Assembly (NCBI GenBank): GCA_963798485.1
Contig: CAWCTR010000030.1
Span: 64,001-128,000, forward strand
Direction of reading: 5' to 3'
Origin: an uncultured delta proteobacterium
Lineage (GTDB): Bacteria > Desulfobacterota > Desulfomonilia > UBA1062
DNA: 64,000 nt
The notes beneath the pieces were generated by a model, which worked only from the letters and a program-made list of their open reading frames with translations, was not told the DNA's origin and made no database searches. Both the position numbers and the translations under genes were made by a program. The first letter of the stretch is position 1. Each line of letters starts with the position of its first letter. Shown here piece by piece: positions 13,108 to 60,092 of the stretch.

Positions 13108-13124
13108 CTTCACTTTCTTCATAT

Positions 13125-19087: not shown

Positions 19088-19210
19088 TAATGATGAATTC
19101 GGCCTTTTATCCTTAAAACTTGAAAAATACAGTTCCTCTTTTTTCTTGACTGGCAGGCATGCGTCCCGTACTTGAAATGAGGGATATACACTGCAACGAT
19201 GAGGTGTAAG

Positions 19211-43619: not shown

Positions 43620-43695
43620 TATTGTGTAATTCATTGAATACTGAGGCGGACATACCCTTCCCCGGCATCGCAATACACATATTGAGGAGCGATTG

Positions 43696-46386
43696 ATGGA
43701 TGGTACTGTGTTGACATTGAATGGAAAGCAGGTTGAATTCAAACAGGGACAGACGATCCTCGACGTTGCTACTGACAATGGTATTAAAATTCCAACGCTG
43801 TGCTATCTGAAGGGCTGTACGCCCACCGGTGCGTGCCGGGTGTGCCTGGTGGAGGTCGCAGGGGCCAGGTCACTGGTGGCCTCGTGTTCCACCCCGGCCG
43901 AGAAGGGCATGCTTATTGAGACCGACTCACAGCGTGTTCATCACTCGCGCAAGCTCAACATCGAGTTCCTGCTGGCAAGCGGCAAGCACAACTGCCTCAC
44001 CTGCGAGAGCTCGGGTGACTGCACCCTCCAGGAAATGGCATATCGTTATGGCATCGAGACGCTCCGATTCGAGAGCACTCCCCAGCCTTATGAAACAGAA
44101 GATGTGAACCCCTTCATCATCCGTGACTTCAAGAAGTGCATCCTGTGCGGACGCTGTGTGCAGGCCTGCCAGGACGTCCAGGTAAACCAGGCCATCTCGT
44201 TCGGCAACCGCGGGCCTCATGCCAAGATCATTGCAGGCACGGACACGCGCTATGACCTGAGCGACTGCGTGTTCTGCGGGCAGTGCGTGCAGGCATGCCC
44301 GGTGGGCGCCCTCATCGAGAAGAAGTCGAAGTTTCTTGGCCGCATCTGGGATGTGCGAAAGGTCCGCACCACCTGTCCCTACTGCGGGGTAGGGTGCCAG
44401 CAGTTGTTGCATGTTAAAGCCGGGAAGATCGTCAAGGTCACGGCCCCGGACGACGCTTTGCCCAACAAGGGCAGGCTCTGTGTCAAGGGCCGGTTCGGGT
44501 ATGACTTCATCTACTCTGAAGACCGCCTCAAAACGCCGCTCATCAAGGAGAACGGAACGTTTAGGGATGCGTCATGGGACGAGGCCCTCAACTTGGTAGT
44601 TAGGAAATTTAAAGAGATCAAGGAAAAGCACGGTCCTGACGCCATAGCCGGCGTCAGCTGCGCCAGGAGCCTGAACGAAGACTCCTACCAGATGCAGAAG
44701 CTCTTCCGCGCAGTGATCGGCACCAACAACATCGATCACTGCGCGCGAACGTGACACGCCCCCACGGTCGCCGGTCTGGCGATCGCATTCGGTTCAGGCG
44801 CAATGACGAACTCCTTCGGCGAGTTCGAGAACGCCAAGATGTTCCTGGTCATCGGGTCCAACATGACCGAGGCCCATCCCGTGGCAGCCACCTTCCTCAA
44901 GAACGCGGTCATGAAGGGGGCCGAGCTCATCTTGGTGGACCCGAGAAAGCATAAACTCGCTGATTTCGCCGGCATGCATGTCCCCATAAAAGTGGGCAGC
45001 GATATCGCCTTCCTGAACGGTCTCATGTACGTCCTCATCACCGAGGACCTCTATGACAAGGAATTTGTAGAGGCACGCTGCAAGGGGTTTGACGAGCTTA
45101 AGGCCATGGTCATGAACTACCCGCCGGAAAAGGCCGCCGAAATAGCAGGGGTGAGCGCCGACATGATCCGGCTGGCGGCCCGGAGACTGGCATCGGTGAA
45201 GCCGGTCATGTGCTGCTACACACTGGGTATCACCGAGCATACCTGTGGAAGAAATAATGTTCTCTCAGTTGCCAACCTCCAGATGCTGCTGGGAAACCTG
45301 GGCATGGAGGGCGGCGGTGTGAACCCTCTGAGAGGACAGAACAACGTGCAGGGCGCCTGTGACATGGGGGCCTTGCCCAATGTGTTCCCCGGCTATCAGC
45401 AGGTAGGCAACGCGGAAGCCCGGGCCAAGTTCGAAAAGGCCTGGGGCGTCACCGGCCTGCCCGACAAGCCGGGCCTTATGATCCCCCAGATGATGGATGG
45501 CCTCAAGGATGGCAAGATCAAGGGCTTATGGATCTTCGGCGAAAACCTGGCGAATACCGAACCGGATATCGCCAAGGTCGAACATGAGCTCGCCTCTGCC
45601 GAGTTTCTCGTGTGCAACGACATCTTCCCCACCGAGACCACCCGGTTCGCCCACGTCGTGTTCCCGGCAGCGGCCTGGAGCGAGGACGACGGCACCTTCA
45701 CCAGCTCTGAGCGCCGTATCAGCAGGGTGCGCAAGGTGAGCGAGCCCCCGGGAGAGGCCAGGCCGAACTGGTGGATCTTCAAGGAGATCGCAAAGAGGAT
45801 GGGTCATGAGTGGCAATCGAACAGCGGCCCCGAGCTCTGGGACAACGAGGTCTCGGTCCTGGCACCCGCCTTTGGCGGGGTGAAATATCGCCGCATCGAG
45901 AACGACGGCCTCCAGTGGCCGTGCCCCAACGAGGAGCACCCCGGAACTGCAGTTCTCCATAGGGGAGGTGTGTTCGCGAGCGGCCTGGGCCAGCTTACGC
46001 CCGTGGAATGGACCCCGCCCGCCGAGGTAGCGGACAGCGAGTATCCCTTTGTGTTGTCCACGGGCCGCAGGCTCTACCACTACCATACCCGTACCCAGAC
46101 CGGCCGCACCGGCCTGGACTGGTTGCTGGGCGAGGAGACCGCGGACATATCTCTTGAAGACGCCCGGAACCTGGGCATCAGCCATGGCGAGACGATTCGG
46201 GTACGGTCCCGCAGGGGAGAGGTCAAAGTGAAGGCCAAGGTCACCAAGCAGGTACCCAGGGGCATGGTCTGGATGTCCTTCCACTTCAGGGACGGCAATG
46301 CCAACTGGCTTACCAACCCGGCCTTTGACCCGAACACGCTGACCGCCGAGTACAAGGCCTGCGCAGTGGCCATCGAGAAGATCTGA
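43696..46386 (+). CDS. fdhA: Selenocysteine formate dehydrogenase alpha subunit with NuoG-like N-terminal Fe-S domains (~896 aa)
   Basis: Two track ORFs are one frame joined at TGA 44752-44754 (CART-U-HAPTVAGL); 2Fe-2S/4Fe-4S motifs, CPYCGVGC, LRGQNNVQG, molydopterin-binding C-terminus. Confidence 0.95.
44765..44785 (+). promoter_or_regulatory. Bacterial SECIS hairpin
   Basis: CGGTCGCC-GGTCT-GGCGATCG starting 10 nt after UGA; resembles the E. coli fdhF SECIS layout. Confidence 0.85.
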
Positions 46387-46555: not shown

Positions 46556-47302
46556 ATGATGAAGATCCGGTCAATCATCTTTGTATTCTGCATTATTATT
46601 ACTTTTGCATTTACCGCCTCAGCCCAGGACAAGATAACGGTCGCGGTTGCAGCGAATTTTATCGAGCCGTTCAAGGAGATAGCCGTACTATTCGAGACGA
46701 ATACCCATATTCAGGCTGAGCCGACATTCTCTTCAACCGGCAAGCTCTTTGCGCAGATCAGTGAGGGTGCACCTTATGATGTATTCCTCTCTGCGGATGA
46801 AAAACGCCCCGGTGAGCTTTTCCAGAAGGGGCTCTCCGGGAAGCCCTTTGTTTATGCAAAGGGTGAGGTCGTGCTGTGGACCGCACGGAAAGACCTTTGT
46901 GATGCAGGTGATTGGAAAGTTATACTCGTGAGATCCGATGTAAAAAAGATCGCAATAGCGAACACCGAGACAGCGCCCTATGGTACTGCATCCATGAAGG
47001 CCTTGAAGGATGCCGGTTTGTGGGACAGCCTGCAGGGGAAATTCGTCTTTCCCCAGGACATTGCCCAGGCCTTTCAGTATGCCTCTACCGGAAGTGTGGA
47101 TGCCGGGTTCTGCGCCCTTTCCTCGGCCCTTTCGCAGCAGGGCAAGGCTGGGTGTTACCTCGTGGTGAAGGAAGCGCCTGTTGTTGTTCAGGCCGCATGC
47201 GTGCTGGGCAGGACAGGACAGAAAGCGGCTGCCGAGAAGTTTGCTGCATTCCTCCTCTCTGCTGAGGCGGACCATGTGAAAAAGAAATACGGGTACAAGT
47301 AG
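46556..47302 (+). CDS. modA: Molybdate ABC transporter binding protein
   Basis: Signal peptide, VAVAAN, SSTGKL, APYDVFLSAD, APYG. Confidence 0.93.
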   Translation: MMKIRSIIFVFCIIITFAFTASAQDKITVAVAANFIEPFKEIAVLFETNTHIQAEPTFSSTGKLFAQISEGAPYDVFLSADEKRPGELFQKGLSGKPFVYAKGEVVLWTARKDLCDAGDWKVILVRSDVKKIAIANTETAPYGTASMKALKDAGLWDSLQGKFVFPQDIAQAFQYASTGSVDAGFCALSSALSQQGKAGCYLVVKEAPVVVQAACVLGRTGQKAAAEKFAAFLLSAEADHVKKKYGYK

Positions 47303-47304
47303 GA

Positions 47305-47970
47305 ATGGACCTCGTCGCATTATATCTCTCCATCAAACTTGCCGTGGTGAGCACGATCGTGTTGATCATCATCGCGGCCCCACTGTCTTACGCCCTTGTG
47401 TACTCACGAATTCCCGGAAAGACCCTTCTCGATGCGCTCATCAACCTTCCCATCGTGCTCCCGCCCACAGTGCTTGGTTTCTACCTTCTCATAGTCATGA
47501 GCCCGAAAGGCAGCATGGGCCATGTCTGGGAGTCGGTCTTCGGGTTTTCACTCCTGTTCACGTTCACCGGGATCGTCATTGCATCGATCATCTACAGCCT
47601 GCCCTTTGCCGTTGCACCCATGAAAGCGGCCTTCGCCAGGATTGAGCCACGCCTTGTGGAAAACGCACAGGTGCTCGGGCTTTCCCCTGCCATGATCTTC
47701 TTCAGGGTGATCCTCCCAAACTCTTTGGCCGGGATTGCAGCCTCAGCCATCCTTGTCTTTTTGCATACCATAGGCGAGTTCGGGGTGATCCTCATGGTGG
47801 GAGGCAGCATCCCGGGCAAGACCAAGGTTGCATCCATCGCCATCTATGAGGCCGTAGAGGCATTGCGGTATCAGGATGCCTGGTTGATGTCCATCATGCT
47901 TGTCCCTGTGTGTTTTGTGTTTCTACTCCTGGTGAACCGGCTCACACCCGAGGTGCATCATGGGGCTTGA
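47305..47970 (+). CDS. modB: Molybdate ABC permease
   Basis: LPIVLPPTVLGFYLL, GEFGVILMVGGSIPG. Confidence 0.95.
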   Translation: MDLVALYLSIKLAVVSTIVLIIIAAPLSYALVYSRIPGKTLLDALINLPIVLPPTVLGFYLLIVMSPKGSMGHVWESVFGFSLLFTFTGIVIASIIYSLPFAVAPMKAAFARIEPRLVENAQVLGLSPAMIFFRVILPNSLAGIAASAILVFLHTIGEFGVILMVGGSIPGKTKVASIAIYEAVEALRYQDAWLMSIMLVPVCFVFLLLVNRLTPEVHHGA

Positions 47971-48712
47971 TGTACGGATAAAAAAGAGGCTCAAGGACTT
48001 TGAGCTCAACGTAGCGTTCTCCTGCATGGACGGGCGGCTGCTCGCCATAGTAGGCCCCTCGGGCGCAGGCAAAACCACCATCATACGCATGCTGGCCGGT
48101 CTCCAGAAACCGGACCAGGGCCTCATCACCTGTAAAGAAGAGATATGGGCCAGCACGAGAGACAAGATCCATGTGCCTGCCAGGAAGAGGGGGATCGGGT
48201 ATGTATTTCAGGAATTCACCCTGTTTCCTCATATGAATGTCTATAAGAACGTGGCCTTTGCGACAAAGGACTCTAAGGCCGTGGAAGAGTTCATGCGGCT
48301 TTTCGATATCTGGCACATCAGGGACAGCAAGCCGCACAAGATCTCAGGAGGGGAACGCCAGCGATGCGCCATATGCCAGGCCCTGGCCCGTTCACCAAGG
48401 GTATTGCTTTTGGATGAGCCGTTTTCAGCCCTTGATGCGCTGACCCGAAGGAAACTCCGTGAAATGGTGAAGGACTTGAAGCACGAGTTGAACATCCCCA
48501 TCATTCATGTGACCCATGACATAAGGGAGGCACTCTTCCTGGCAGATGACATCCTGCCTGTGGTACAGGGCAGGGTGGAAGGCAAATGGCTGCTGCAGTT
48601 CATGCTCATGTCCAGAGAGGTCGGCCGGTGTCTTGCCTATGACAACAGTGCCGGAAAGAATGAAGAAGAGGAAATCGAACTATCCATTGCTACGAAGGAG
48701 TCCATGCGATGA
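47960..48712 (+). CDS. modC: Molybdate ABC ATPase (no TOBE domain)
   Basis: GPSGAGKT, SGGERQR, LLLDEPF, VTHD. Confidence 0.9.
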   Translation: MGLDVRIKKRLKDFELNVAFSCMDGRLLAIVGPSGAGKTTIIRMLAGLQKPDQGLITCKEEIWASTRDKIHVPARKRGIGYVFQEFTLFPHMNVYKNVAFATKDSKAVEEFMRLFDIWHIRDSKPHKISGGERQRCAICQALARSPRVLLLDEPFSALDALTRRKLREMVKDLKHELNIPIIHVTHDIREALFLADDILPVVQGRVEGKWLLQFMLMSREVGRCLAYDNSAGKNEEEEIELSIATKESMR

Positions 48713-49350
48713 ATATCGGACCGTATTCCATTGAAGACTACATGCACCTGGTCAAATCATTTCACGGCAACATTGCGCCCGGTCTCATCATCGGCGGGTT
48801 CATGGTGGACCTTGCCATGAAAAATCTCCCGGATGGGGTCCTGTTCGATGCCATCAGCGAGACCCAGACCTGCCTTCCGGATGCCATCCAGCTGCTGACG
48901 CCCTGTACTATCGGAAACGGCTGGCTCAAGGTCATGGACTTCGGCCGTTATGCCCTGTGCCTTTTTGACAAGTATCAAGGCAATGGAGTCAGGGTGTTTC
49001 TTGACCCTGAAAAGCTGGAGAATTGGCAGGAGATCAAGACCTGGTTCTTCAAGCTCAAGCCCAAAAAGGATCAGGACCCGATCATCCTCAGGGACCGGAT
49101 CATCGATGCAGGCCCGGACATCCTCACTGTTCAACATGTCACGGTGGACAATGCTTTTCTCGGCAAGAAGGGCAAGGGCGCTATCGCCGCATGCCCCTCG
49201 TGTGGAGAGGCATACCCTTCAAAAGACGGTGCTGTCTGCCTTGCCTGCCAGGGGGGAAGCCCATATACACGCGAATCCCAGGGCGAGACACATGGGACCA
49301 AACCTGACCTCAAGGTAATACCATCTACCTCTGGTTCGACAAAGGGGTGA
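48709..49350 (+). CDS. FmdE-family protein with C-terminal zinc ribbon
   Basis: FHGNIAPG, CLPDAIQLLTPCTIGNG, CPSCGEAYP..CLAC. Confidence 0.85.
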   Translation: MNIGPYSIEDYMHLVKSFHGNIAPGLIIGGFMVDLAMKNLPDGVLFDAISETQTCLPDAIQLLTPCTIGNGWLKVMDFGRYALCLFDKYQGNGVRVFLDPEKLENWQEIKTWFFKLKPKKDQDPIILRDRIIDAGPDILTVQHVTVDNAFLGKKGKGAIAACPSCGEAYPSKDGAVCLACQGGSPYTRESQGETHGTKPDLKVIPSTSGSTKG

Positions 49351-49473: not shown

Positions 49474-49884
49474 ATGACGGAGCCGGTGAGAGTCGTAGCG
49501 CATTTTATCGATGACATAGTCGTGAAGGGTTACACCTCTGATTTCAACCCCAGCCACCCGTTTTTCCATATCCATCAGGCGATTCCGGGATCGCAGCCTG
49601 ATGGACCCCTTCGGATGGAACTCAAAGAGATCAAGGCGGTTTTCTTTGTGAAGACCCTTGAAGGGAACAGGGAATACCAGGAGAGAAAGGAGTTCATAGA
49701 AGGTGATCGGATTCTGGGCCGGATGGTGGAGGTTACCTTCATCGATGGTGAGACGATCAGGGGATATACGGTTGATTATAATCCCAAGCAGCAGGGGTAT
49801 TTTTTAATACCGGTAGACCCTAACAGCAATAATATCCAGATCTTCGTGGTCTCATATGCGGTCAGCGGCATCCGTTTCCTGTAA
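49474..49884 (+). CDS. Conserved hypothetical protein with duplicated small beta domain (DUF6982-like)
   Basis: KGYTSDF, IKAVFFVK, VEVTFIDGE, PVDPNSNN. Confidence 0.65.
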   Translation: MTEPVRVVAHFIDDIVVKGYTSDFNPSHPFFHIHQAIPGSQPDGPLRMELKEIKAVFFVKTLEGNREYQERKEFIEGDRILGRMVEVTFIDGETIRGYTVDYNPKQQGYFLIPVDPNSNNIQIFVVSYAVSGIRFL

Positions 49885-49922
49885 ATGAATGGTAACCTGG
49901 CTGGCCTCATGCGCTAAGGGAC

Positions 49923-50525
49923 ATGGCTATGCCGGCATTCTTCGACTCTACGATGTACACCTGGTTGATACTGCCCACTCTCATCTTTTTTGCCCGCATC
50001 ATGGACGTAAGCCTTGATACGGTCCGCATTATTTTCATCAACAGGCATCTCAAACACTATGCCACCATCATCGGCTTTTTTGAGGTGTTGATCTGGCTCA
50101 TGGCCATCCGCCAGATCTTCGAACACCTGAGTAACCCTTTCTGTATGATCGCCTATGCCGCCGGTTTTGCCACAGGTAACTACGTAGGCATTCTCATTGA
50201 GAACAGGCTGTCCATCGGAAAGGTGATCATCCGCATCATCACCAGGATGGAGGCCGACGAATTCATTACCTTCCTCAGGTCTGCAGGGTATGGGCTCACC
50301 ATCATCGATGCCGAGGGAGTGACAGGGCCGGTGAAGGTCATTATGTCCATTGTGGAGCGCAGCAACATCGAGCACATTGTTGAAATGATCAAACAGCACA
50401 ACCCCCAGGCCTTCTATTCGGTGGAGGACGTGCGTTTTGTCAGCGAGGCCGTTACGCCCTACCGTCTCCCCGGCCCGCGCAGGTGGGAGCGTTTTGTCTC
50501 CCGGATGCGCAAGCGAGAGGAATAA
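49923..50525 (+). CDS. UPF0316/DUF2179 membrane protein
   Basis: ARIMDVSLDTVR, GFFEVLIW, YAAGFATGNYVG, PII-like C-terminus. Confidence 0.85.
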   Translation: MAMPAFFDSTMYTWLILPTLIFFARIMDVSLDTVRIIFINRHLKHYATIIGFFEVLIWLMAIRQIFEHLSNPFCMIAYAAGFATGNYVGILIENRLSIGKVIIRIITRMEADEFITFLRSAGYGLTIIDAEGVTGPVKVIMSIVERSNIEHIVEMIKQHNPQAFYSVEDVRFVSEAVTPYRLPGPRRWERFVSRMRKREE

Positions 50526-50587
50526 GGGTTCATCTTAAGTATGGTAAAGAATGGCACTGAACTTGGATACATTGGGGAGGGAACTGA

Positions 50588-51541
50588 TTGAGGACCACAT
50601 CACTTCCAGGGCAAGCAGGAATTTCGAGGCTGAACCTTTTCCTGGCACTTTCCCGTACGCCCCATTTGTTATTGGATCTGGCAGCCCCTGGTTTGGCGGC
50701 ATTGCTTTGTTTGGGTGCCTTTCCCTCTGCCAGGGTGCTTGTCCTTGGGCTGATCACCGCCTTCTCTGGTTATACGGCCGTGTATGCCCTGAACGATATC
50801 ATTGATTACCGCTTTGATAAGGAACTCATTGGCTCAAGCACAGCCCATGAATCGAAACCGGACCTGGACAGCGTACTAGTACGCCATCCCATTGCGCAGG
50901 GGATGTTGAGTTACAAGGAAGCCTTGTTTTGGACCTCTGCCTGGGCGGTCCCGGCGCTGGCAGGGGCCTTTCTCCTCAACCCCATATGCCTTGCCATTTT
51001 CCTCGGTGCCGCTGTGTTTGAAGTCATCTACTGTTGTCTCCTGAAGATCACCCACCTCCGCAGTATCATCAGCGGAATAGTCAAAACCTCAGGGCCCATC
51101 GCAGCGGTTTTCGCGGTAAACCCACAACCTACCATGCCATTCTTGATGACACTCTTTCTCTGGCTCTTCTTCTGGGAGATCGGGGGGCAGAATGTCCCGA
51201 ACGATCTGTCCGATCTGGATACCGATCAGCAGATAAGGGCCCGGACAATCCCTGTGCGCTTCGGTGCACAGAGGTCTATCCTGATCATATGCTTCTCACT
51301 GGTCATTGCCGTTGCCATGAGTATGGCCATGTTCTGGGTAGTGCCAAACCATATAAGACCTCTCTATCTCTTGGGTGCGATATTTTCAGGATTGTATTTT
51401 CTCCTGTTACCTGCTTACCATCTGGTTAAGACCAGGGGGGCAGAGGAGGCCTCCCGGCTGTTTAACCGGTGCAGTTACTATCCTTTGTCCATGCTCATGA
51501 TAACAGTGTTGAGCTTGGCGGCTATTCGAATAATTGTATAA
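50588..51541 (+). CDS. UbiA-superfamily prenyltransferase
   Basis: Asp-rich NDIIDYRFD and NDLSDLDTD, RHP, ~8 TM; TTG start with GGAGG. Confidence 0.88.
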   Translation: MRTTSLPGQAGISRLNLFLALSRTPHLLLDLAAPGLAALLCLGAFPSARVLVLGLITAFSGYTAVYALNDIIDYRFDKELIGSSTAHESKPDLDSVLVRHPIAQGMLSYKEALFWTSAWAVPALAGAFLLNPICLAIFLGAAVFEVIYCCLLKITHLRSIISGIVKTSGPIAAVFAVNPQPTMPFLMTLFLWLFFWEIGGQNVPNDLSDLDTDQQIRARTIPVRFGAQRSILIICFSLVIAVAMSMAMFWVVPNHIRPLYLLGAIFSGLYFLLLPAYHLVKTRGAEEASRLFNRCSYYPLSMLMITVLSLAAIRIIV

Positions 51542-51575
51542 TGGGTTAGATGGTACCCTATCAAGAAAGGACGAT

Positions 51576-52292
51576 ATGAAAGAATTCGACCCGGAATCTC
51601 TGGCAGAATTCAACGGCAAAGACGGTAAGCCCGTGTATGTGGCCCACAAGGGCAAGGTGTTCGACCTAAGCGAGAGCAGACTATGGAAGACCGGGCTCCA
51701 CATGAAGCGTCACCCCGCAGGGCAAGATCTCACCATCGATATCTGGGCGGCACCACATGGACCTGAGGTCCTGGACAAATATCCTCAAGTAGGCACCTTG
51801 AAAAAACAAGCCACTGGTGGCCAGTTGCCCAATCCATTGGAAATGATGATGGATCGGTTTCCCTTTCTGCGCCGTCATCCGCACCCCATGCTGGTGCACT
51901 TCCCCATTGTATTCATGATCGCCCCTGCGATCTTTTGCATCCTTTACCTTATCACCGATATGAAGTCTTTTGAGACCACGGCCTTTCACTGCCTGGGTGC
52001 AGGCATCCTTTTTTCCATTCCGGCCATCCTTACAGGCTTCTTCACCTGGTGGCTCAACTATCAGGCCAGATCCATGAGGCCCATCAGGATCAAGATATAC
52101 TTTTCCCTCTTCCTCTTTGCAGTCGCCCTCATTACCTTCTCCTGGCGGGCATTGTTCACGGATGTCCTCACCTCTTTGGACAAAGAGGGTATTGCATATT
52201 TTCTGCTGATCCTCTCGCTGGTCCCTCTGGTGGGGGTCATAGGCTGGTATGGCGCAAGCCTGACCTTTCCCCTTGAGAAAAAATCTCTGTGA
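51576..52292 (+). CDS. Cytochrome b5-like domain fused to DUF2231 membrane domain
   Basis: YVAHKGKVFDLS, WKTGLHMKRHPAGQDLT, APHG; HPHPMLVHFP + 4 TM. Confidence 0.85.
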   Translation: MKEFDPESLAEFNGKDGKPVYVAHKGKVFDLSESRLWKTGLHMKRHPAGQDLTIDIWAAPHGPEVLDKYPQVGTLKKQATGGQLPNPLEMMMDRFPFLRRHPHPMLVHFPIVFMIAPAIFCILYLITDMKSFETTAFHCLGAGILFSIPAILTGFFTWWLNYQARSMRPIRIKIYFSLFLFAVALITFSWRALFTDVLTSLDKEGIAYFLLILSLVPLVGVIGWYGASLTFPLEKKSL

Positions 52293-52299
52293 AGTATCC

Positions 52300-52893
52300 C
52301 TATCGTTTGATTGCAAGTCCGAAGATCTCCAGCTTTTTGATCTCTACACATTTTCCAAGCTCCAGTCCGGCCATACACAAGCCTTGCTTCAAGTCCCGGC
52401 TGCAGAACCGGTTCTCGGTCGGATGGAGGAGGATATGCCTGGTGAGGATGTTCTGGTAAAGCGTCGGGTAGAGCTCTTCGAAGAAGTAGACACCGCCGGG
52501 CTTCAAAACCCTGACGATCTCTGAAAGTGCACCTTGCCAGTCAGGGATATGATGGAGGACCCCGAAGCCGAAAACTGCATCCATAATCCCGGCTTGATAG
52601 GGCAGTTGGTTCACATCGCCTACATAAAAGGAGACACCGGATCTCTTCTCTGGGGAAAGGTAGTTGAAGGCCTTCTGAATCATCCGGATATCGAGGTCCA
52701 TGGCATGCAGCATTGCGGGCTTGAACATGGTCTTGATAAGAAAGGAGCCTGCCCCCCTGCCGCATCCTATTTCCAGGACAGCAGCATCGGGCTTCTGCCC
52801 AAGGCCCTTTTTCAGCAATGCGATCTCCAGGCGCTGCTGCAGAGGCCGGATAGGGTTATTGACCGCCATGCGTTCCGCCCAGTTCAGTTTCAT
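52300..52893 (-). CDS. Class I SAM methyltransferase
   Basis: VLEIGCGRG, GVLHHIPDW, RVLKPGG. Confidence 0.85.
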   Translation of the reverse strand: MKLNWAERMAVNNPIRPLQQRLEIALLKKGLGQKPDAAVLEIGCGRGAGSFLIKTMFKPAMLHAMDLDIRMIQKAFNYLSPEKRSGVSFYVGDVNQLPYQAGIMDAVFGFGVLHHIPDWQGALSEIVRVLKPGGVYFFEELYPTLYQNILTRHILLHPTENRFCSRDLKQGLCMAGLELGKCVEIKKLEIFGLAIKR

Positions 52894-53636
52894 TGTTTGA
52901 CCCCGATATAGATAACCGCAATACCATTCGTGAGCCTTCGGTAGGTCACCCGGGAAAATCCGGTATCTCTCATTTTGGCTGCGAAATCATCAGGTGCAGG
53001 GAACTTTCGTATGGACTCGGGAAGATAGAGATATGCCTCGCTGTTTCCTGCCAGGAGTTTGCCTACCAAGGGCATGATGTGAAAAGAATAGAAATCATAG
53101 AGAAACCTGAACCAGGAAGAGGTGGGTATGGAGAACTCCAGGCACATCATCTTCCCACCCGGCTTGAGGACCCGGTACATCTCTTGAAGTCCTTTGTCCA
53201 TGTCTGTCAGGTTACGAACACCAAAGCCAACCATGGCTGCATCAAAAGAACCGTCAAGGAAAGACATGGACTCCGCATCCCCCTGGACATAGTTGATTCG
53301 TTCTGTCAGCGATGCCTTTGCCACCTTTTGCGTTGCCCATTCCATCATGGCGCGGTTGATGTCATAGAGGGTCACCCGTCCATGAGGACCAACCGCCTTT
53401 GCCGCCAGTATTGAAAGATCTCCTGTCCCCCCGCATACGTCGATTACCCGGTCTCCTGGTTTTAACCCCAAGACATTTACGGATAACCGTTTCCAGAGGT
53501 GGTGGAGTCCGAGACTGAGGATGGTATTCATGAAATCATACTTATTGGCTATGCTCGTGAAGTGTCTGAGGACATATCCGGCCTTGTCCTCACGGGGAAC
53601 CGCGGGTGAACCGGAATAGGCCTTCATTTTCTTCAT
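52890..53636 (-). CDS. ubiE: UbiE/MenG-family C-methyltransferase
   Basis: IANKYDFMN..SLGLHHLWK, DVCGGTGD, GFGVRN, YLYLPESIRKFP. Confidence 0.9.
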   Translation of the reverse strand: MKKMKAYSGSPAVPREDKAGYVLRHFTSIANKYDFMNTILSLGLHHLWKRLSVNVLGLKPGDRVIDVCGGTGDLSILAAKAVGPHGRVTLYDINRAMMEWATQKVAKASLTERINYVQGDAESMSFLDGSFDAAMVGFGVRNLTDMDKGLQEMYRVLKPGGKMMCLEFSIPTSSWFRFLYDFYSFHIMPLVGKLLAGNSEAYLYLPESIRKFPAPDDFAAKMRDTGFSRVTYRRLTNGIAVIYIGVKQ

Positions 53637-54523
53637 ATCTGATACCCGTCTCCCAGCATGGCCAAAAGGTCAAACCCAGCCTCTTGAAAGATGGGGAGGA
53701 GAAAGCTCAGGCTCTCTTGGCCGGCATGCACGGGCATGTTCGCATAGGTATAGAGTTCCAGGCTGATATCATCTTTATAGCCGCTTTTCAGGATGACATC
53801 GAGTACGTTGTGAAAACCAATGGCACCGAGGCCCGGGATAAGGTGGTAATGGCGGCGGTCATGGGCGATATCTTCAATATGGATATGCCCGATCCAGGGC
53901 AGAAGCTCTTGGAAGGCCTCGCATGGGTCTTCCCCTGCGCAGAAGAAATGCCCGATGTCGAAATTGAGCCCGAGAGAGGTTGATTGGGCTTCCTGAATGA
54001 ATTCCTTGAACTGCCGGGTATTTTCCAAAAGCAGGTCAGGCTCCGGTTCCACAAGGATCTTTACCTGAAGCTGTTCTGCCAAGGGCAAAACCTTTTCCAT
54101 ACTGTCATGGAAAAGGGCCAAGGCAACCTTACGGGACATGCCATTCAAAGGGCCTCCGGGGGGGACGGAGATATTGTCACACCCGAGATAAGACGCCAGC
54201 TTCAGGCATTCGAGGGTGTGTCGGATCCTGATCTCCCTACTCTCTTTCATGGGTTCTATCCAGGAGGGAAGGTAGGTATCACCCACTGCGAACAGGGTGA
54301 AGCTGTTCAGGTTGGTAATCCGAAGGCCCTTTTCATCAACCAGCTTTTTAAGCCGGATCAGGCCTTCCGGCCCCCAGTCCCGGGGGTAGAGGTGGGGGCG
54401 GTCTGCCATGACTTCAACCCCGCCGAAACCCAGCCCGGCGATCATGTCAATGGCATCGAACAATGGGTAATTAACAAAGGCGTTGGTGCTGTATCCGAGC
54501 TTCAATCGATTATCTCCCGGCAA
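53633..54523 (-). CDS. Sugar phosphate isomerase/epimerase-type metal TIM barrel
   Basis: LGYSTNAF, VEPEP, NFDIGH, HIHIED, HLIPGLG, SLELY. Confidence 0.85.
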   Translation of the reverse strand: MPGDNRLKLGYSTNAFVNYPLFDAIDMIAGLGFGGVEVMADRPHLYPRDWGPEGLIRLKKLVDEKGLRITNLNSFTLFAVGDTYLPSWIEPMKESREIRIRHTLECLKLASYLGCDNISVPPGGPLNGMSRKVALALFHDSMEKVLPLAEQLQVKILVEPEPDLLLENTRQFKEFIQEAQSTSLGLNFDIGHFFCAGEDPCEAFQELLPWIGHIHIEDIAHDRRHYHLIPGLGAIGFHNVLDVILKSGYKDDISLELYTYANMPVHAGQESLSFLLPIFQEAGFDLLAMLGDGYQI

Positions 54524-55647
54524 TCATTTTCCAGGTGATGGAGAGCAGAGAGTTGTTCCTGAAAGGTGACCGGGGGATTGGGGCCTGCGGGTTTCTTAAA
54601 ATAGAATCCCAGCTCCGGCACCAGACCAGGCCGTTTGGCCTTATGCACGGCAACCATCCACCATGCCAGGTCAATGATCATGGGCCCTGCCAATATAGAG
54701 TCACGGGCCTGCAGATTCAACCTGAGGCTCATGGGCATTCCGAACAGCCCGGTAAAGTCAATGACATCCCAGGCCTCTTTACAATCCCCACGGGGGGGAT
54801 AATAATCGATGACCACCTTATGGGAGGGCGCCCCATAGTGATGACCAACCCGGTATCCAAGAATATCTTCGAGCAGGTCGGTTTTATTGGCGATCTTGCC
54901 TGCCGCCTTATCGGGATCGGCAAGGTTCCTGCCGTCTTCATTACCAAGGATATTCAAACTGTACCATCCATCCACCTGCAGGCCGCGCGCCTTCAGCGCT
55001 GAGGCGAGCACCATCTTAAGATAGGTCTGGCCGGTCTTCCCGTCGCGGCCGCACAAGGGGACCCCGGCCTTTATTGCCTCCTGGGCGATCATTGGCAGCT
55101 CCAGGTAATTTGATGTGAAGTTCACGATTGGCGTGCCTGTAGATATGGCAGCAAGGACATAGGCCAGGTCAGGGAAGTCCCGGGCATCGGCCTGTGAATA
55201 GATTTCATCCAGTGATTGGAATTCCTGAAGGTCCATTACTCTGCTTGCCGGAAGCAGATTGACAAGGACAGGATGGGTATCCGGGAAGAGGCCTTTAAAA
55301 TCATGGATATCCCTTATTAAGTGCTCTACCTGTTTATGAAGAGGTAAATCATTGCCTGGTGCCTGCCGTATCGGGAATGTGCCGAGATGTTCCAGGCAGG
55401 GGAGATATTTCTCAGGGGGGAGAACACCATGGTATTCGATGGCCTGCTTAAGGGTTCGAGGGGCTACATCCCACCCGGCAAGCTCGAGGCCCGTCAGAGG
55501 GTCCAGGTCCTTGAACCAGTGGCCCGTGGTCAGCCAGGGCAGCACCTTTTCAGGGGCTTCCTTCATTACTGCAATGGCGGCGGCAACGGTAGAACCTGTC
55601 GCACCTGCGGCACCGGCAATAAGGAGAAGAGGCGGGTTCGAGTGCAA
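54502..55647 (-). CDS. myo-inositol-1-phosphate synthase family protein
   Basis: GAAGATG Rossmann, AGWDV, GRDGKTGQT, NILGNEDG, RGDCKEAW, RDSILAGP, FYFKKP. Confidence 0.88.
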   Translation of the reverse strand: MHSNPPLLLIAGAAGATGSTVAAAIAVMKEAPEKVLPWLTTGHWFKDLDPLTGLELAGWDVAPRTLKQAIEYHGVLPPEKYLPCLEHLGTFPIRQAPGNDLPLHKQVEHLIRDIHDFKGLFPDTHPVLVNLLPASRVMDLQEFQSLDEIYSQADARDFPDLAYVLAAISTGTPIVNFTSNYLELPMIAQEAIKAGVPLCGRDGKTGQTYLKMVLASALKARGLQVDGWYSLNILGNEDGRNLADPDKAAGKIANKTDLLEDILGYRVGHHYGAPSHKVVIDYYPPRGDCKEAWDVIDFTGLFGMPMSLRLNLQARDSILAGPMIIDLAWWMVAVHKAKRPGLVPELGFYFKKPAGPNPPVTFQEQLSALHHLENDCREIID

Positions 55648-55648
55648 G

Positions 55649-56629
55649 CTAGACCTTTCCCCGCATTATCCAGTAAACCATGCCGGTGTAGAACAAGATA
55701 ACGGGGAAGATCACGATCCCTGCCCCATAGAAGAGGAATCGAAGCGTCTGGACAGGGGCCGCTGCCGTTTCAATTGTAACGGTAAATGGAATCATATATG
55801 GCCAGAAGCCTGCCTCCAAGGCCAGGAATGCGGCAAAGAAGATAATAACCGCCATCCCGTAGGGGACCCAGTCCAGCCGTCTTTGTACCCCTGTCCACAG
55901 GCTGATGGAGGCAAGGGCTATAATCAGCGGGAATATCATAAGCCAGACATCTTCAAAAAAGCGGTCCCTGACACGCAGGTGGATTGCAAGGGTGTAGAGA
56001 AAGACGACGGCAAGAACCCCCAGGACCCCTGCGAGCAGCCACCCCACCCGGTCATAGGCCCATTCGCGTATGGGTCCCCCCGTCTTGAAGACAAGCCAGG
56101 CAGCACCCAGGAGCGTATAACCTATTACCAGACCCATGCCGCAGAACAAAGAAAACGGTGTCAGCCAGTCGAATGCGCCCCCTGCGTATTGTCCGTCAAC
56201 AACACTAAGCCCCTGGACCATCCTTCCGATGGCTATCCCTTGAACAAGGCTTACCATGAAGGAGCCGAGGAAGAATCCTCTGTACCAGAACCGTCTGTAG
56301 CGCCCTGCATGATAACGGAACTCAAATGCGACACCTCGGAATATCAACCCCATAAGCATGAGGGCCATGGGCAGGTAGAAGGCGGGGAGAAAGATTGCAT
56401 AGACCATGGGAAAGGCTGCAAAGAGGCCGGCCCCGATGAGGACGAGCCAGACTTCGTTCCCGTCCCAGAATGGGGCGATAGCGTTCATCATGGTATCCTT
56501 GAATCCCTCGTCCCTTGTGGTACCGGACAGGATGCCTACACCGAGGTCATAGCCGTCAAGGATGACATAAAAGAGCATGGCAAAGGCAATCAGAGAAGCC
56601 CAGAAGACAGGGAGCCAGGATGCACCCAT
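55649..56629 (-). CDS. cydB: Cytochrome bd quinol oxidase subunit II
   Basis: YVILDGYDLG, PFWDGNEVWLV, RGVAFEFR. Confidence 0.95.
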   Translation of the reverse strand: MGASWLPVFWASLIAFAMLFYVILDGYDLGVGILSGTTRDEGFKDTMMNAIAPFWDGNEVWLVLIGAGLFAAFPMVYAIFLPAFYLPMALMLMGLIFRGVAFEFRYHAGRYRRFWYRGFFLGSFMVSLVQGIAIGRMVQGLSVVDGQYAGGAFDWLTPFSLFCGMGLVIGYTLLGAAWLVFKTGGPIREWAYDRVGWLLAGVLGVLAVVFLYTLAIHLRVRDRFFEDVWLMIFPLIIALASISLWTGVQRRLDWVPYGMAVIIFFAAFLALEAGFWPYMIPFTVTIETAAAPVQTLRFLFYGAGIVIFPVILFYTGMVYWIMRGKV

Positions 56630-56634
56630 AAGTG

Positions 56635-58008
56635 TTACCCCTTTGCCTGAGTAGTAGTACCGGCTGTTCTTGCTTCAGCCGTAATCTTGGTTTCAGCATC
56701 AGACGGGCCTTGGCGAAGCAGGGCGTAGATATAGAAAGCGCCCGGGAAAAAGATCACGGAGTATACAATCGCATAGCCGATAAGGGTTGTGAGAACATTT
56801 GCCCCGCTCAGTGTCGGGGTCAGCGTGTCGGATGTCCTCAGAAGGCCGTATACCACCCAGGGCTGGCGGCCTATCTCTGTGGTGAACCAGCCGAGGATAA
56901 CGGCAAGGAAGCCTAGGGGGAAGGCAAGGCTCGCTGACCAGAGGTACCATCGTGTGGTCTCCAGCCGCCCGCGCAAACGAAGCCATAGACCGAACAGGCT
57001 GATGCCCAGCATCAGCATGCCGAGACCTACCATGATGCGGAAAGAAAAGAAGGGGATGAGGACAGGCGGCCAGGCATCTTTGGGGAAATCACTCAGACCG
57101 TGAACAGGTGCCGTCCAGCTGCCTGTTGCAAGCCAGCTCCCGATGTAAGGTGTCGTGATGGTGAAGAGGTTTCTCTGATTCTTTTCATCAGGGATTGCGA
57201 ACCATATCTGTGATCCCGGCTGTTCAGGGTGCCAGCGCGCCTCTACGGCAGCGAATTTTGCCGGCTGATAAGTATACATGTGTTTGCCGTTGATATCTCC
57301 TATAATGATCTGGACGATCATCAGCACCGCCGTGATCACCAGTCCCCAGTTCAGCATGACACGCGCCTCGGCGCGATGAACATCCCTGAGCACATACCAA
57401 GCCCCTGTGGATATAATGCACATGGCGGTGGTAAGGAATGTGGCCAGCAGCATGTGCAACCAGCGGGCCAGGAACACCGGCCCGAGGACGATCGCCGTCC
57501 AGTCGGTGGGGATGATCCTGCCGGCAATGATTTTATAACCCACCGGCACCTGCATCCAGCTGTTGTTGCACAGGATCCAGAAGGAAGACAAGACTGCGCC
57601 CATGGCCAGCATGCAGCATGAAAAGAAATAGAACCACGGTGCTGCTCGGTTGCGGCCGTAGAGTACGACACCCAGGAAGGTCGCCTCAAGCATGAATGCC
57701 GTGAAGGTCTCATACCCAAGCAAGGGTCCCATGACGGAACCCGCCTTTGACGACATCACGCTCCAGTTGGTGCCGAACTGGAATGCCATGACCATGCCGC
57801 TGACAACACCCATGGCGAACAGTATCGCAAAGATCTTCAACCAGAAATCAAAGAGCCTTTGGTAGAGAGAATTGCCGCTTGATAGATGCAGCCCTTCAAG
57901 CAGCGCCAGCCATATGGATAATCCGATGGTTATGGAAGGAAAGATTATATGAAAGGAGACAGTGAACGCGAATTGGATGCGGGAGAAGATCAACGGATCT
58001 AGATTCAC
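56635..58008 (-). CDS. cydA: Cytochrome bd quinol oxidase subunit I (short Q-loop)
   Basis: SFHIIF, FQFGTNW, WLHMLL, QPAKFAAVE, FRIMVG, TEIGRQPW. Confidence 0.96.
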   Translation of the reverse strand: MNLDPLIFSRIQFAFTVSFHIIFPSITIGLSIWLALLEGLHLSSGNSLYQRLFDFWLKIFAILFAMGVVSGMVMAFQFGTNWSVMSSKAGSVMGPLLGYETFTAFMLEATFLGVVLYGRNRAAPWFYFFSCCMLAMGAVLSSFWILCNNSWMQVPVGYKIIAGRIIPTDWTAIVLGPVFLARWLHMLLATFLTTAMCIISTGAWYVLRDVHRAEARVMLNWGLVITAVLMIVQIIIGDINGKHMYTYQPAKFAAVEARWHPEQPGSQIWFAIPDEKNQRNLFTITTPYIGSWLATGSWTAPVHGLSDFPKDAWPPVLIPFFSFRIMVGLGMLMLGISLFGLWLRLRGRLETTRWYLWSASLAFPLGFLAVILGWFTTEIGRQPWVVYGLLRTSDTLTPTLSGANVLTTLIGYAIVYSVIFFPGAFYIYALLRQGPSDAETKITAEARTAGTTTQAKG

Positions 58009-58114
58009 GATTCATGCCTCCATCCATCTCGTTAAAATCATACCTACTTTAAGTTATATATACGTTAAGGGAACAGGATTGAAAGTCAAGAAGAAAGAAC
58101 CCGGAAAGTGTTTT

Positions 58115-59506
58115 TCAGTCTTTGACGGAATCCAGCTTCACGCCCAAGTCATAGTATGCCGACATGCGGGACTGAAAGCTGTTTTTGAGCATGCCGTTCG
58201 TATCGAGATAATCGAAGATCAGGGCATCCTCCTTGCCTTCGGTCACGCGCAGGATGCGGCCGATGTACTGCTTGACCCTGCCGGTGAATTTGACAGGTGT
58301 GGCCAGGAAGATAGAGGAGAGCTGCTTGAGGTCGAATCCCTCACCTATGAGCTGGGCCGTTGCCACCAGGACCTTGGCCTGGTTGCAGTTGAGATCCTCA
58401 ACAATCCGGGCACGTTCCTTGACCTGCACCGAACCGGTGAGCAGGCATGCCTTTATACCGCGGTCGGTGATGGCCGTGAAGAGCTCTTTGCAGTGGGAGA
58501 CGCGGTCCGAGATGACAAGTGCAATTCCGCTTTCCGGGGTACAGGCCCGGGCCACTACGTCTTCCACGATGAACTTGTTCCTTTTCGCATCGTTCACCAG
58601 GGCCGAGATCATGTACTGGTATTCGTCCGCATCGAAGAAGTATGCACAATTGGTGTGGCGGATAATGAGCTTGGCCCTCATGATCTTGTCAAGGGCCTGG
58701 AGCTCATGGGAATTGATCTGGTGTACCCGGTCGCCCAGGTAGAAGTAGATGATCCTGGTGAGCTTGTCCCTTCGGTAGGGCGTGGCCGAAAGCCCCAGCA
58801 TGAAGGTGCTGTCGAATACGCTCACCGCTTCGGTAAAGGTGCGTGACGGTGTGTGGTGGCACTCATCCACCACAAGGTGACCGATTGCCGGCTTGACATC
58901 ATCGATCACCTTATAGAGCGAGTTGATAATGGCAATGGTGAGCTTGTCGCCGAGGCGGTTGTGCCCATCGCCGATAAGGCCGATGGAGTCTGAGGGGATA
59001 TCAAGAAATTCGCATGAGCGCTTGTGCCACTGGTACATGAGCTCCTTGGTGTGTACGATCACCAGGGCTCTCTGACGGCGCTGGGCAATAACGGCAAGGG
59101 CCATAACCGTCTTGCCTGCACCGGGTGGCGCCTCCAAAACCCCGAACCTCCTGCCCATGACATCTCTTACCGCTGAGACTTGGTAGGGGTGTAGCGCTAT
59201 TTTGAATGAAAAAGAAACTGGGGGCAATAAGCGGGTCTTGTCCACGATGGTATAGGCGACTTCCTTCAGCCTAAAGCGGAGCGTGTGGATGTAACCCCTG
59301 GGCATGATGAGCACACCGCTCTTTCTTTTGTAAAACCTGATGAATTCGGGTTGGAAGTTCCTCCTGCGGCTGCGGCTGTAGGTTTCCACCTGCTCCCACT
59401 TGGGATTGGGCAGGGTCAGATCGGCCTCTATGATCTGCACGGCCTGCTCGGGCAGGTCTGCCTCAAAGATTCTGATGGCATTATCCACATGGATCAAGAC
59501 ATTCAT
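58115..59506 (-). CDS. SF2 DEAD/DEAH-box (ResIII/XPB-like) helicase
   Basis: YQ, APPGAGKT, DECHH, SATP, EGFD, QYIGRILR. Confidence 0.9.
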   Translation of the reverse strand: MNVLIHVDNAIRIFEADLPEQAVQIIEADLTLPNPKWEQVETYSRSRRRNFQPEFIRFYKRKSGVLIMPRGYIHTLRFRLKEVAYTIVDKTRLLPPVSFSFKIALHPYQVSAVRDVMGRRFGVLEAPPGAGKTVMALAVIAQRRQRALVIVHTKELMYQWHKRSCEFLDIPSDSIGLIGDGHNRLGDKLTIAIINSLYKVIDDVKPAIGHLVVDECHHTPSRTFTEAVSVFDSTFMLGLSATPYRRDKLTRIIYFYLGDRVHQINSHELQALDKIMRAKLIIRHTNCAYFFDADEYQYMISALVNDAKRNKFIVEDVVARACTPESGIALVISDRVSHCKELFTAITDRGIKACLLTGSVQVKERARIVEDLNCNQAKVLVATAQLIGEGFDLKQLSSIFLATPVKFTGRVKQYIGRILRVTEGKEDALIFDYLDTNGMLKNSFQSRMSAYYDLGVKLDSVKD

Positions 59507-59516
59507 TTACCGGGCC

Positions 59517-60092
59517 TCATTCCAGGGCTTGTTTCAATTCATCGAGGAAATGCCTGGCCTCATCCCTGTCTAAAGAGATTTTAACCGTGCCCCCGCCTGG
59601 ATGGGCGAACTTGAGTGCGATACCTTCGTCCTCTTTATCAATCTTCCAGCGTGTATTTCCGGGCATTCCGACCGATGGCGCAAGCCAGTCGTCAGCTTGG
59701 AATTCAGCGATCTGGATAAGAACGCCAAAGGCATATCTCGGGTGGATGAAGAGTTCTTTCCATACAGAACCATAGTCATTGAATCCGAAGAAGGGGATAT
59801 TGTTTTTCGCAAGGGCCTCTTTTACCGTCTGGATGCTCTGCGTCTGCAGGGTTATGTGGTGTACTCCACCGGGTTTATCCTTCAGAAAGTTGTCCAGGAA
59901 ACTGCCACTGGCGGTAGGGGTGATAAGTTCGAGCCTGCTGAGGTCTCCCAGGGACAGGTTTTCCCAGTAGTACTTCATGTCAGGGTCCTTGCCGGATGAT
60001 CCGGTAACGGCCCCGAGGACCTCGGAAAAGAAGCTTAAAGCCTTGTCGTAATCCTTTACCGCAATGGCCACGTGATCAACACGAGATATCAT
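59517..60092 (-). CDS. VOC-family methylmalonyl-CoA epimerase-like protein with C-terminal extension
   Basis: DHVAIAV, LELITP, GGVHHI, FIHP..FGVLIQIAE. Confidence 0.75.
   Translation of the reverse strand: MISRVDHVAIAVKDYDKALSFFSEVLGAVTGSSGKDPDMKYYWENLSLGDLSRLELITPTASGSFLDNFLKDKPGGVHHITLQTQSIQTVKEALAKNNIPFFGFNDYGSVWKELFIHPRYAFGVLIQIAEFQADDWLAPSVGMPGNTRWKIDKEDEGIALKFAHPGGGTVKISLDRDEARHFLDELKQALE

Follow-up and report, generated by a model that had tools for sequence, protein, structure and literature searches.

A conserved gene module linking a paralogue of myo-inositol-1-phosphate synthase to quinone-type tailoring genes in Desulfobacterota

Why should genes for a cyclitol-type enzyme, a prenyltransferase and two methyltransferases stand next to those of a cytochrome bd oxidase? 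The question is raised by eight genes at positions 50588-58008 of the window, by which we mean the whole 64,000-nucleotide stretch that was analysed (positions 64001-128000 of contig C30 of genome G000; 4.3 Mb in 32 contigs, 97.5% complete, 7% contamination). The closest named loci in a scan of a genome collection belong to Desulfomonilia metagenome-assembled genomes. Six of the genes lie on the minus strand and two, convergent with them, on the plus strand, and the most likely reading of the sequence is that a six-gene module is fused downstream of cydAB as one operon in the window's genus. The module comprises INO1L, a paralogue of myo-inositol-1-phosphate synthase (MIPS), a TIM-barrel enzyme (TIM), a UbiE-type methyltransferase, a second methyltransferase (MT2), a UbiA-superfamily prenyltransferase and a cytochrome b5-DUF2231 fusion (b5-DUF2231). 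A conserved cluster in which quinone-type tailoring genes are combined with a specialised paralogue of MIPS is undescribed: we found no account of it in the literature, in agreement with the original prediction made for this locus from its sequence, which had called the system a candidate undescribed one.

At the head of the operon cydA (56635-58008, minus strand; cytochrome bd oxidase subunit I, PF01654 493.8 bits) and cydB (55649-56629, minus strand; subunit II, PF02322 276.8 bits, TIGR00203 135.2 against a cut-off of 117.3) are separated by a 5-nucleotide gap (TAA-CACTT-ATG). A single nucleotide (TAG-C-TTG) lies between cydB and INO1L (54502-55647, minus strand; 381 amino acids), which matches PF01658 with 106.7 bits (cut-off 27) and PF07994 with 56.8 (cut-off 25). 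TIM, a metal-dependent xylose-isomerase-like TIM barrel (53633-54523, minus strand; PF01261 129.6 bits), overlaps INO1L by 22 nucleotides if read from its first TTG and by a TTGA-type overlap if read from the TTG at 54505, which is probably the true start, where the orthologues begin. The UbiE-type quinol C-methyltransferase (52890-53636, minus strand; PF01209 261 bits, TIGR01934 261.4 against a cut-off of 158.35) and MT2, a small class-I S-adenosylmethionine (SAM) methyltransferase of 197 amino acids (52300-52893, minus strand; PF08241 71.1 bits), follow with an ATGA overlap at both the TIM/UbiE and the UbiE/MT2 junction. Seven nucleotides separate the stop of MT2 from the stop of the convergent b5-DUF2231 gene (51576-52292, plus strand, the longest open reading frame (ORF) starting at 51534; PF09990 62.7, PF00173 29.2 bits), which codes for a cytochrome b5-like domain fused to a DUF2231 membrane domain and is preceded by the gene for the divergent UbiA-superfamily prenyltransferase (50588-51541, plus strand; PF01040 107.7 bits against a cut-off of 34.2). 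Because b5-DUF2231 orthologues begin at ATG 51576 and not at 51534, these two genes are probably about 34 nucleotides apart and do not overlap. All gaps and overlaps were re-read from the sequence, confirming the tight packing from cydA to MT2 and the convergence on UbiA and b5-DUF2231 as originally predicted. A scan for consensus promoters and terminators gave nothing meaningful inside the operon, with 6 promoter-like sites against 6.3 expected.

That the gene arrangement is more than chance follows from its recurrence in other families. We assembled 22 INO1L loci from the genome-collection scan, searches covering the class (122 genomes) and the phylum (401 genomes), regions fetched around the matches, and two metagenome loci; they derive from genus g1 of the window's family, families f26, f33, f73 and f93, genome G511 and two metagenome contigs. 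TIM follows INO1L in every locus long enough to show it, and the order INO1L-TIM-UbiE-MT2 is kept in 18 of the 22, which represent six or more families of Desulfobacterota. Independent lineages are fewer than 18, since several of the INO1L loci are closely related (g1 contributes seven, g64 three and g161 two). UbiE lies on the same strand after TIM in 18 loci and is immediately next to it in 15 of these; in the other three the two are separated by a further methyltransferase gene (L028), a single additional gene (L122) or an IS110 element (L064), the last being an IS110-family transposase gene at 12835-13770 of a metagenome copy of the module. MT2 orthologues are found directly after UbiE across the module loci. 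Three loci (L009, L010 and L022) consist of INO1L-TIM only, without UbiE, and in L023 the contig ends 84 nucleotides past TIM. Orthologous UbiA is present in 12 of the 22 loci, so that a shared neighbourhood of INO1L, TIM, UbiA and UbiE is indeed conserved. As a separate observation, the loci of genus g64 carry, a few kb upstream of INO1L and in conserved synteny, a gene for a type I phosphodiesterase/nucleotide pyrophosphatase, the Pfam family to which EboF-like enzymes belong, together with a BKACE gene (L027 4543-5916, with counterparts in L029 and L031).

We then considered how the module is distributed over the phylum. In the sample of 401 Desulfobacterota genomes a UbiA orthologue (E <= 1e-60) occurs in 44, INO1L (E <= 1e-90) in 12 and MqnA/D (PF02621) in 204 genomes. 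Eight of the 12 INO1L-bearing genomes possess the UbiA orthologue, compared with 44 of 401 overall. As to the other four, the locus of G282 begins at a contig edge, in G351 UbiA is incomplete where the contig ends, b5-DUF2231 occurs without UbiA in G286, and G265 has neither. All three genomes that were reached via lone or contig-end-cut INO1L-TIM loci contain UbiA elsewhere. Two of these regions were read: in G509 UbiA is located 180 kb from INO1L, together with b5-DUF2231, MT2 and UbiE, and in G511 the sequence beyond the contig cut after INO1L-TIM completes a full module. When metagenomes were scanned with an alignment of eight module UbiAs, 80 loci at 48-74% identity were returned, whose neighbours were counted by tblastn. 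b5-DUF2231 directly follows UbiA in 28 of these 80 loci, and UbiE, MT2 and INO1L-TIM are near UbiA in 17, 15 and 2, respectively; these counts are lower bounds as many contigs are only a few kb long. Thus, a shorter core of UbiA, b5-DUF2231, MT2 and UbiE is more widespread than the INO1L-bearing module, and INO1L-TIM is an add-on found almost only in genomes with the core. The complete genome G378 (C1:2849701-2874182) has two UbiE copies of the type B clade described below in the vicinity of its UbiA orthologue: the first comes right behind UbiA, encoded on the other strand, and the second is 23 kb away.

INO1L clearly has the MIPS fold; the closest solved chains to it are 7nwr (E 3e-41) and Archaeoglobus fulgidus 1u1i (E 2e-34). 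In the alignment INO1L is identical to 1u1i at columns D225, D261, K274, K278, K306, D332 and K367, which we take to be the catalytic Asp and Lys residues. It is far from the mycobacterial INO1 equivalog (TIGR03450 32.7 against a cut-off of 638). A second, higher-scoring canonical MIPS copy is located elsewhere in all five INO1L genomes tested, which come from families other than that of the window, and since a canonical synthase already exists there, INO1L is a specialised extra paralogue in those five genomes. In G000 and in four members of its genus (G104, G105, G106 and G109) INO1L is the sole match to the INO1L query at E <= 1e-20.

The structure predicted for TIM (predicted local distance difference test score 91.4) was used for a model search, which returned as fold neighbours the Art22 isomerase, UlaE, the MJ1311 protein, tagatose/psicose 3-epimerases, the 3-dehydroshikimate dehydratase AsbF (rank 17), IolI and IolE. 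The best sequence matches in the PDB are MJ1311 and, second, AsbF. The four usual metal ligands E159, D189, H215 and E256 are invariant in 16 TIM orthologues, as is a long loop, NSFTLFAVGDTYLPSWIEP. AsbF and IolE, which are aromatising or inosose dehydratases of this superfamily, share the TIM-barrel fold and the pattern of metal ligands with the window protein, but sequence identity is 16-23% and the closest neighbours of TIM are epimerases and isomerases. These features say that TIM would use metal-assisted enolisation on a carbonyl sugar or cyclitol, epimerisation, isomerisation and dehydration not being told apart.

For the window UbiE the best model is MpqE (NF052510), with a score below its cut-off (291.2 against 335). 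The MpqE and proteobacterial UbiE models rank best for all nine module-linked UbiEs, whereas six comparison UbiEs, taken from module-free genomes or being second copies, are 36-41% identical and rank the models differently. Five module-free congeners carry a lower-scoring UbiE (196-205 bits). In a wider search, UbiE was detected at E <= 1e-70 in 72 of the 401 genomes, and in a tree from a quick maximum-likelihood search a 'type B' clade of 50 rows was recovered with a support of 99 in the Shimodaira-Hasegawa-like approximate likelihood ratio test; linkage to INO1L needs 2 to 6 changes on this tree. MT2 is missing beside 17 of the 20 stand-alone UbiEs from genomes that lack UbiA. No NCBIfam model matched MT2 over its cut-off, and no informative relatives of it were found.

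The NDxxDxxxD motif and a second Asp-rich stretch are invariant in eight UbiA orthologues. The window UbiA stays below the equivalog cut-offs of MqnP (42 against 375), TIGR01474 (37.3 against 275) and PRK06080 (23.8 against 264), and its best NCBIfam model, TIGR01475 ('ubiA_other'), is also below its cut-off (87.1 against 180.8). No EboC model was among its NCBIfam matches with E up to 10, and a search of the PDB with a UbiA profile gave marginal matches only (best E 0.0038). In b5-DUF2231 six histidines are invariant (His 42, 46, 61, 101, 103 and 108); three lie in the b5-like domain, an HxAG motif included, and three where the membrane domain begins. In a protein atlas b5-DUF2231 retrieved its own fusion family only, with clusters that are commonest in Thermodesulfobacteriota, and we found no literature on the function of DUF2231. 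Upstream of the module in two other loci (L024 5689-6411 and L025 8305-9021) lies a gene for another DUF2231 protein, whose fusion partner is a cytochrome c domain of the cbb3 type in place of b5; in L024 it has beside it a NorB that resembles the quinol-dependent nitric oxide reductase (qNOR). As DUF2231 is fused either to b5 or to cytochrome c, it seems to be a membrane unit that combines with more than one kind of soluble haem domain.

The original prediction had described the locus as a cytochrome bd operon extended by a pathway and had named co-occurrence with cydAB as a check; this part did not hold up. cydAB adjoins the module only in the window and in five further g1 loci (L005, L006, L007, L011 and L021), and on one metagenome contig (L056) cydA lies past UbiA, b5-DUF2231 and a radical-SAM gene. 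With adjacency confined to one genus and one contig with cydA, the extension of a bd operon is a local arrangement and not the system itself. The locus L024 of family f33 is flanked by genes for a qNOR-type NorB, a DUF2231-cytochrome c fusion, a START-like protein and an ABC1/UbiB-like kinase, L086 by an ABC1 kinase gene, and L026, L028, L064 and L094 by genes for a heavy-metal P-type ATPase (copper-ATPase), a cytochrome c and DsbD_2. What recurs in the flanks is respiratory oxidases together with accessory genes rather than cytochrome bd in particular.

We also asked which quinone genes the window genome possesses. G000, at 97.5% completeness, has no match to MqnA/D (PF02621), and its best MenD (TIGR00173) score is 43.5 against a cut-off of 244. 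UbiD (PF01977) gave no match either; UbiX, UbiC and UbiU/V were not searched for. An ABC1 kinase is present. On the 8-kb contig C26 of the same genome (L020 365-2922) a truncated UbiA-family gene is found next to a radical-SAM gene and a methyltransferase gene, which may be another prenyl-quinone-type cluster or part of the 7% contamination. In the phylum sample MenD was tested in 109 MqnA/D-negative genomes, namely 29 with UbiA or INO1L and 80 of the 166 without. It is absent from 101 of the 109, comprising all 29 with UbiA or INO1L and 72 of the 80 without, which by extrapolation leaves about four in ten sampled Desulfobacterota genomes without MqnA/D and MenD, compared with 27 of the 44 UbiA genomes. 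We therefore rejected the absence of Men and Mqn genes as a mark of the module, given the 72 of 80 module-free, MqnA/D-negative genomes that lack MenD. The idea that the module replaces the futalosine pathway was rejected as well, as MqnA/D is also present in five of the 12 INO1L and 17 of the 44 UbiA genomes. Several genomes negative for both MqnA/D and MenD still have UbiE.

How does the window cluster compare with known systems? The accessible text of a preprint on the ebo cluster describes conversion of deoxy-inosose into a hydroxylated aromatic ring that is farnesylated by the UbiA-like EboC, with EboD as a dehydroquinate-synthase-like cyclase and Ino1 only in the Actinomycetota-type cluster (10.64898/2026.05.21.724671). 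The original prediction, in which INO1, a TIM barrel and UbiA formed the ebo core, was thus imprecise, being true as to Ino1 for the Actinomycetota form only. The logic resembles that of ebo, in particular of the Actinomycetota ino1-ino3 form: the cyclisation of a sugar phosphate is combined with an enzyme of the xylose-isomerase type, and a UbiA-like enzyme prenylates, or here would prenylate, an aromatic ring that derives from a cyclitol. The window cluster differs in having an INO1-like cyclase in contrast to the dehydroquinate-synthase-like EboD, in its TIM falling far below the EboE model NF035939 (28.6 against a cut-off of 250), in adding UbiE, a second methyltransferase and b5-DUF2231, and in its respiratory oxidase neighbours. 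The EboA, EboB (TatD-like), EboD (dehydroquinate-synthase-like) and EboF (phosphatase) families were not found by Pfam, either among the ORFs at 49474-60092 or in the rest of the window; the absence of eboA, eboB and eboF had been noted before. By its gene content, the cluster is not an ebo cluster.

With the ubiquinone, plastoquinone and methyl-plastoquinone systems (UbiA/UbiE/UbiG, Plq and Mpq) the cluster shares a UbiA-superfamily prenyltransferase, a UbiE-family C-methyltransferase and a further SAM methyltransferase, and an ABC1/UbiB-like kinase gene stands next to the module in L024 and L086. However, the window genome has no UbiD match, no UbiC was found in the locus, the cluster contains no hydroxylase gene, the UbiA and MpqE scores are under their cut-offs, and an INO1-like cyclase and TIM occupy the place of the ring-supply genes. 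The known pathways to these three quinones start from chorismate-derived 4-hydroxybenzoate, according to the accessible part of a recent preprint (10.1101/2024.07.27.605408). The late steps of menaquinone synthesis (MenA or MqnP with MenG/UbiE) are matched in the UbiE-family methyltransferase, the module copy being the sole one in several futalosine-pathway genomes. In contrast, the window UbiA falls outside the MenA model and a separate true MenA exists, neither MqnA/D nor MenD was found in the window genome, and the UbiA orthologue occurs in 44 of the 401 genomes compared with 204 for MqnA/D, which is present in just 17 of the 44 UbiA genomes. Going by the families present, the cluster is not a known ubiquinone, plastoquinone, methyl-plastoquinone, Men or Mqn pathway; by analogy it would work most like a hybrid, in which an ebo-type ring supply is combined with UbiA, UbiE and a further methyltransferase for quinone tailoring. 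According to the accessible part of a preprint on quinone distribution, one class of Desulfobacterota has a ubiquinone pathway of the ubiA-X/T/U/V type, and some genomes lack both menaquinone pathways; that part mentions neither inositol nor this gene set.

What, then, might the module make? The reading that we tentatively favour, at slightly less than an even chance, is a membrane-bound, prenylated and methylated electron carrier of the benzoquinol type with a cyclitol-derived ring. INO1L would cyclise hexose-6-phosphate, and TIM, acting by enolisation (isomerisation, dehydration or phosphate elimination), would give an inosose or deoxy-inosose that could aromatise by water loss to a tri- or tetrahydroxybenzene. 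UbiA would attach a polyprenyl chain, MT2 would O-methylate and UbiE C-methylate the ring, and the product would be demethoxyubiquinol- or ubiquinol-like, formed without chorismate, a decarboxylase or an O2-dependent hydroxylase. The trihydroxybenzene route would presumably give exactly the substrate of UbiE in the Escherichia coli pathway. b5-DUF2231 may be a haem-binding membrane redox partner or provide an oxidising step, and the product would be used by the quinol oxidase encoded next to the module, which is bd in the window and qNOR or another enzyme in other loci. Such chemistry has precedents: acid dehydration is reported to convert myo-inosose into 1,2,3,4-tetrahydroxybenzene (PMC11467972), and the farnesylation by EboC described above shows a UbiA-like enzyme acting on a ring of cyclitol origin (10.64898/2026.05.21.724671). 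Whether the carrier is also a higher-potential benzoquinone (demethoxyubiquinone- or ubiquinone-like), made by a chorismate- and O2-independent route with ring oxygens ready-made from hexose phosphate and dedicated to O2- and NO-detoxifying oxidases in strict anaerobes, is more doubtful. All chemical steps and the product are what we infer, starting from the gene anatomy, protein families, conservation, co-occurrence and paralogue status of INO1L established above. The cyclitol-to-quinone interpretation of the original prediction survives to this extent: the linkage is conserved, INO1L is a paralogue and no known ring pathway was found in G000, while the chemistry is conjectural, the link to cydAB is local and the ring source is not universal.

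Several findings weigh against a cyclitol-derived benzoquinol. From its sequence INO1L looks capable of carrying the normal reaction through to inositol phosphate, which would leave no carbonyl for TIM, the module contains no dehydrogenase gene, and the nearest folds of TIM are epimerases and isomerases, not dehydratases. In the 401-genome sample 36 of the 44 UbiA-bearing genomes have no INO1L orthologue, which makes the cyclitol unit dispensable for the core and not a universal ring source, and INO1L-TIM stands at just the two metagenome UbiA loci mentioned above, many contigs being short. Nor are MIPS-family genes of any kind enriched in those 36 genomes (28 of 36, compared with 56 of 80 random UbiA-lacking genomes of the phylum). 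Stand-alone UbiEs nest among the module-linked ones within the type B clade of the quick tree, and in G259 one of them is 1.3 kb away from an MqnA/D gene; since the wider search met the same clade as stand-alone genes, the subtype of UbiE carries less weight as evidence for a benzoquinone. The module UbiE is the only UbiE in G000, G145, G220 and G263, and since the latter three possess MqnA/D, it probably methylates demethylmenaquinone there; probably it also serves menaquinone wherever menaquinone is made. G000 itself encodes a true MenA on contig C16 (224.5 bits), among unrelated genes, and the MenA model does not match the window UbiA. The original prediction had noted that men and mqn ring genes are lacking at the locus, and its question whether UbiA and UbiE belong to menaquinone clades received a divided answer, UbiA being under the MenA, MqnP and 4-hydroxybenzoate-transferase cut-offs and the UbiE clade also holding stand-alone copies beside mqn genes. 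Finally, the joint absence of MqnA/D and MenD is common in the phylum and so lends the module no specific support.

The main rival reading is that two pathways share the operon. UbiE would then be the housekeeping demethylmenaquinone methyltransferase acting on the product of MenA, with 1,4-dihydroxy-2-naphthoate scavenged or of unknown source, INO1L-TIM would make an inositol isomer or another cyclitol for a solute or lipid head group, and UbiA, b5-DUF2231 and MT2 would make a different prenylated product. The true MenA elsewhere in the genome, the module UbiE as sole UbiE in four genomes and the stand-alone members of its clade, one beside an mqn gene, favour this view, as do the retention of all MIPS catalytic columns in INO1L, the epimerase and isomerase folds nearest to TIM, which include the inosose isomerase IolI, the separation of INO1L-TIM from quinone genes in L009, L010 and L022, and G265, which has INO1L-TIM without a UbiA orthologue. 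Two pathways would, however, hardly explain why 18 of 22 loci, representing at least six families, keep the order INO1L-TIM-UbiE-MT2 with stop codons that overlap the next start, why INO1L is extra beside a canonical synthase in five of five genomes, why UbiA is so strongly enriched in INO1L genomes (8 of 12 against 44 of 401), and why MT2 travels with the module and is missing at 17 of 20 stand-alone UbiEs. We regard the division into two pathways as possible but rather unlikely.

Two further products deserve consideration. One is a secondary metabolite akin to ebo products and thallusin, with a cyclitol-derived, possibly N-containing aromatic head that is prenylated and methylated, serving as a signal or protective meroterpenoid and not as a respiratory carrier. 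In the accessible text of the ebo preprint, ebo genes make thallusin from deoxy-inosose, the Actinomycetota form has Ino1 and two isomerases/dehydratases in place of EboD, and ebo core genes are also found in Desulfobacterota (10.64898/2026.05.21.724671); the weak match of TIM to EboE points the same way. Yet that match (28.6 against 250) is far below the cut-off, the window cluster lacks genes of the EboA, TatD-like and phosphodiesterase kinds, UbiE clearly belongs to the quinol C-methyltransferase family and the neighbours are respiratory oxidase genes, making such a metabolite improbable. A prenylated non-aromatic cyclitol lipid, in which UbiA would O-alkylate inositol phosphate as the archaeal digeranylgeranylglyceryl phosphate (DGGGP) synthases do glycerol phosphate, appears very improbable: INO1L looks fully competent as an inositol-phosphate synthase and DGGGP-synthase-type models are among the better matches of UbiA (PRK12882 52.6 and PRK12884 64.8 bits), but these scores are far under the cut-offs, and the lipid would leave the operon-conserved ring C-methyltransferase of the UbiE family without a role.

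To our knowledge, all respiratory quinone pathways described so far take their ring from chorismate, and those leading to benzoquinones also need hydroxylation. A ring that comes from a sugar and is already oxygenated would explain how some anaerobes could form a benzoquinone without a chorismate ring or hydroxylations, and it would bear on the debate over when high-potential quinones arose. Were the more doubtful reading, a dedicated higher-potential benzoquinone, correct, the module would represent a new class of respiratory-quinone biosynthesis. On a cautious reading, what stands is a module of six genes, not described before, that includes a specialised paralogue of MIPS and a haem protein with a DUF2231 domain. 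The roughly four in ten genomes without MqnA/D and MenD imply, moreover, that quinone supply in Desulfobacterota is far from understood.

Other genes of the window were recorded in passing. On the plus strand at 43693-46386 the alpha subunit of a formate dehydrogenase is read as two ORFs in one frame; the break is a TGA (44752-44754) within the motif HCARTUHAP, which is typical of selenocysteine sites. Directly downstream of it (46556-49350, plus strand) follow the genes of a molybdate/tungstate-type ATP-binding cassette transporter (SBP_bac_11, permease and ATPase) and then an FmdE-family gene. Unrelated to the module are genes for an IS110-family transposase (1748-2773), a bacterial serpin (5567-6880) and a B12-binding radical-SAM enzyme that adjoins a methyltransferase (19199-21445).

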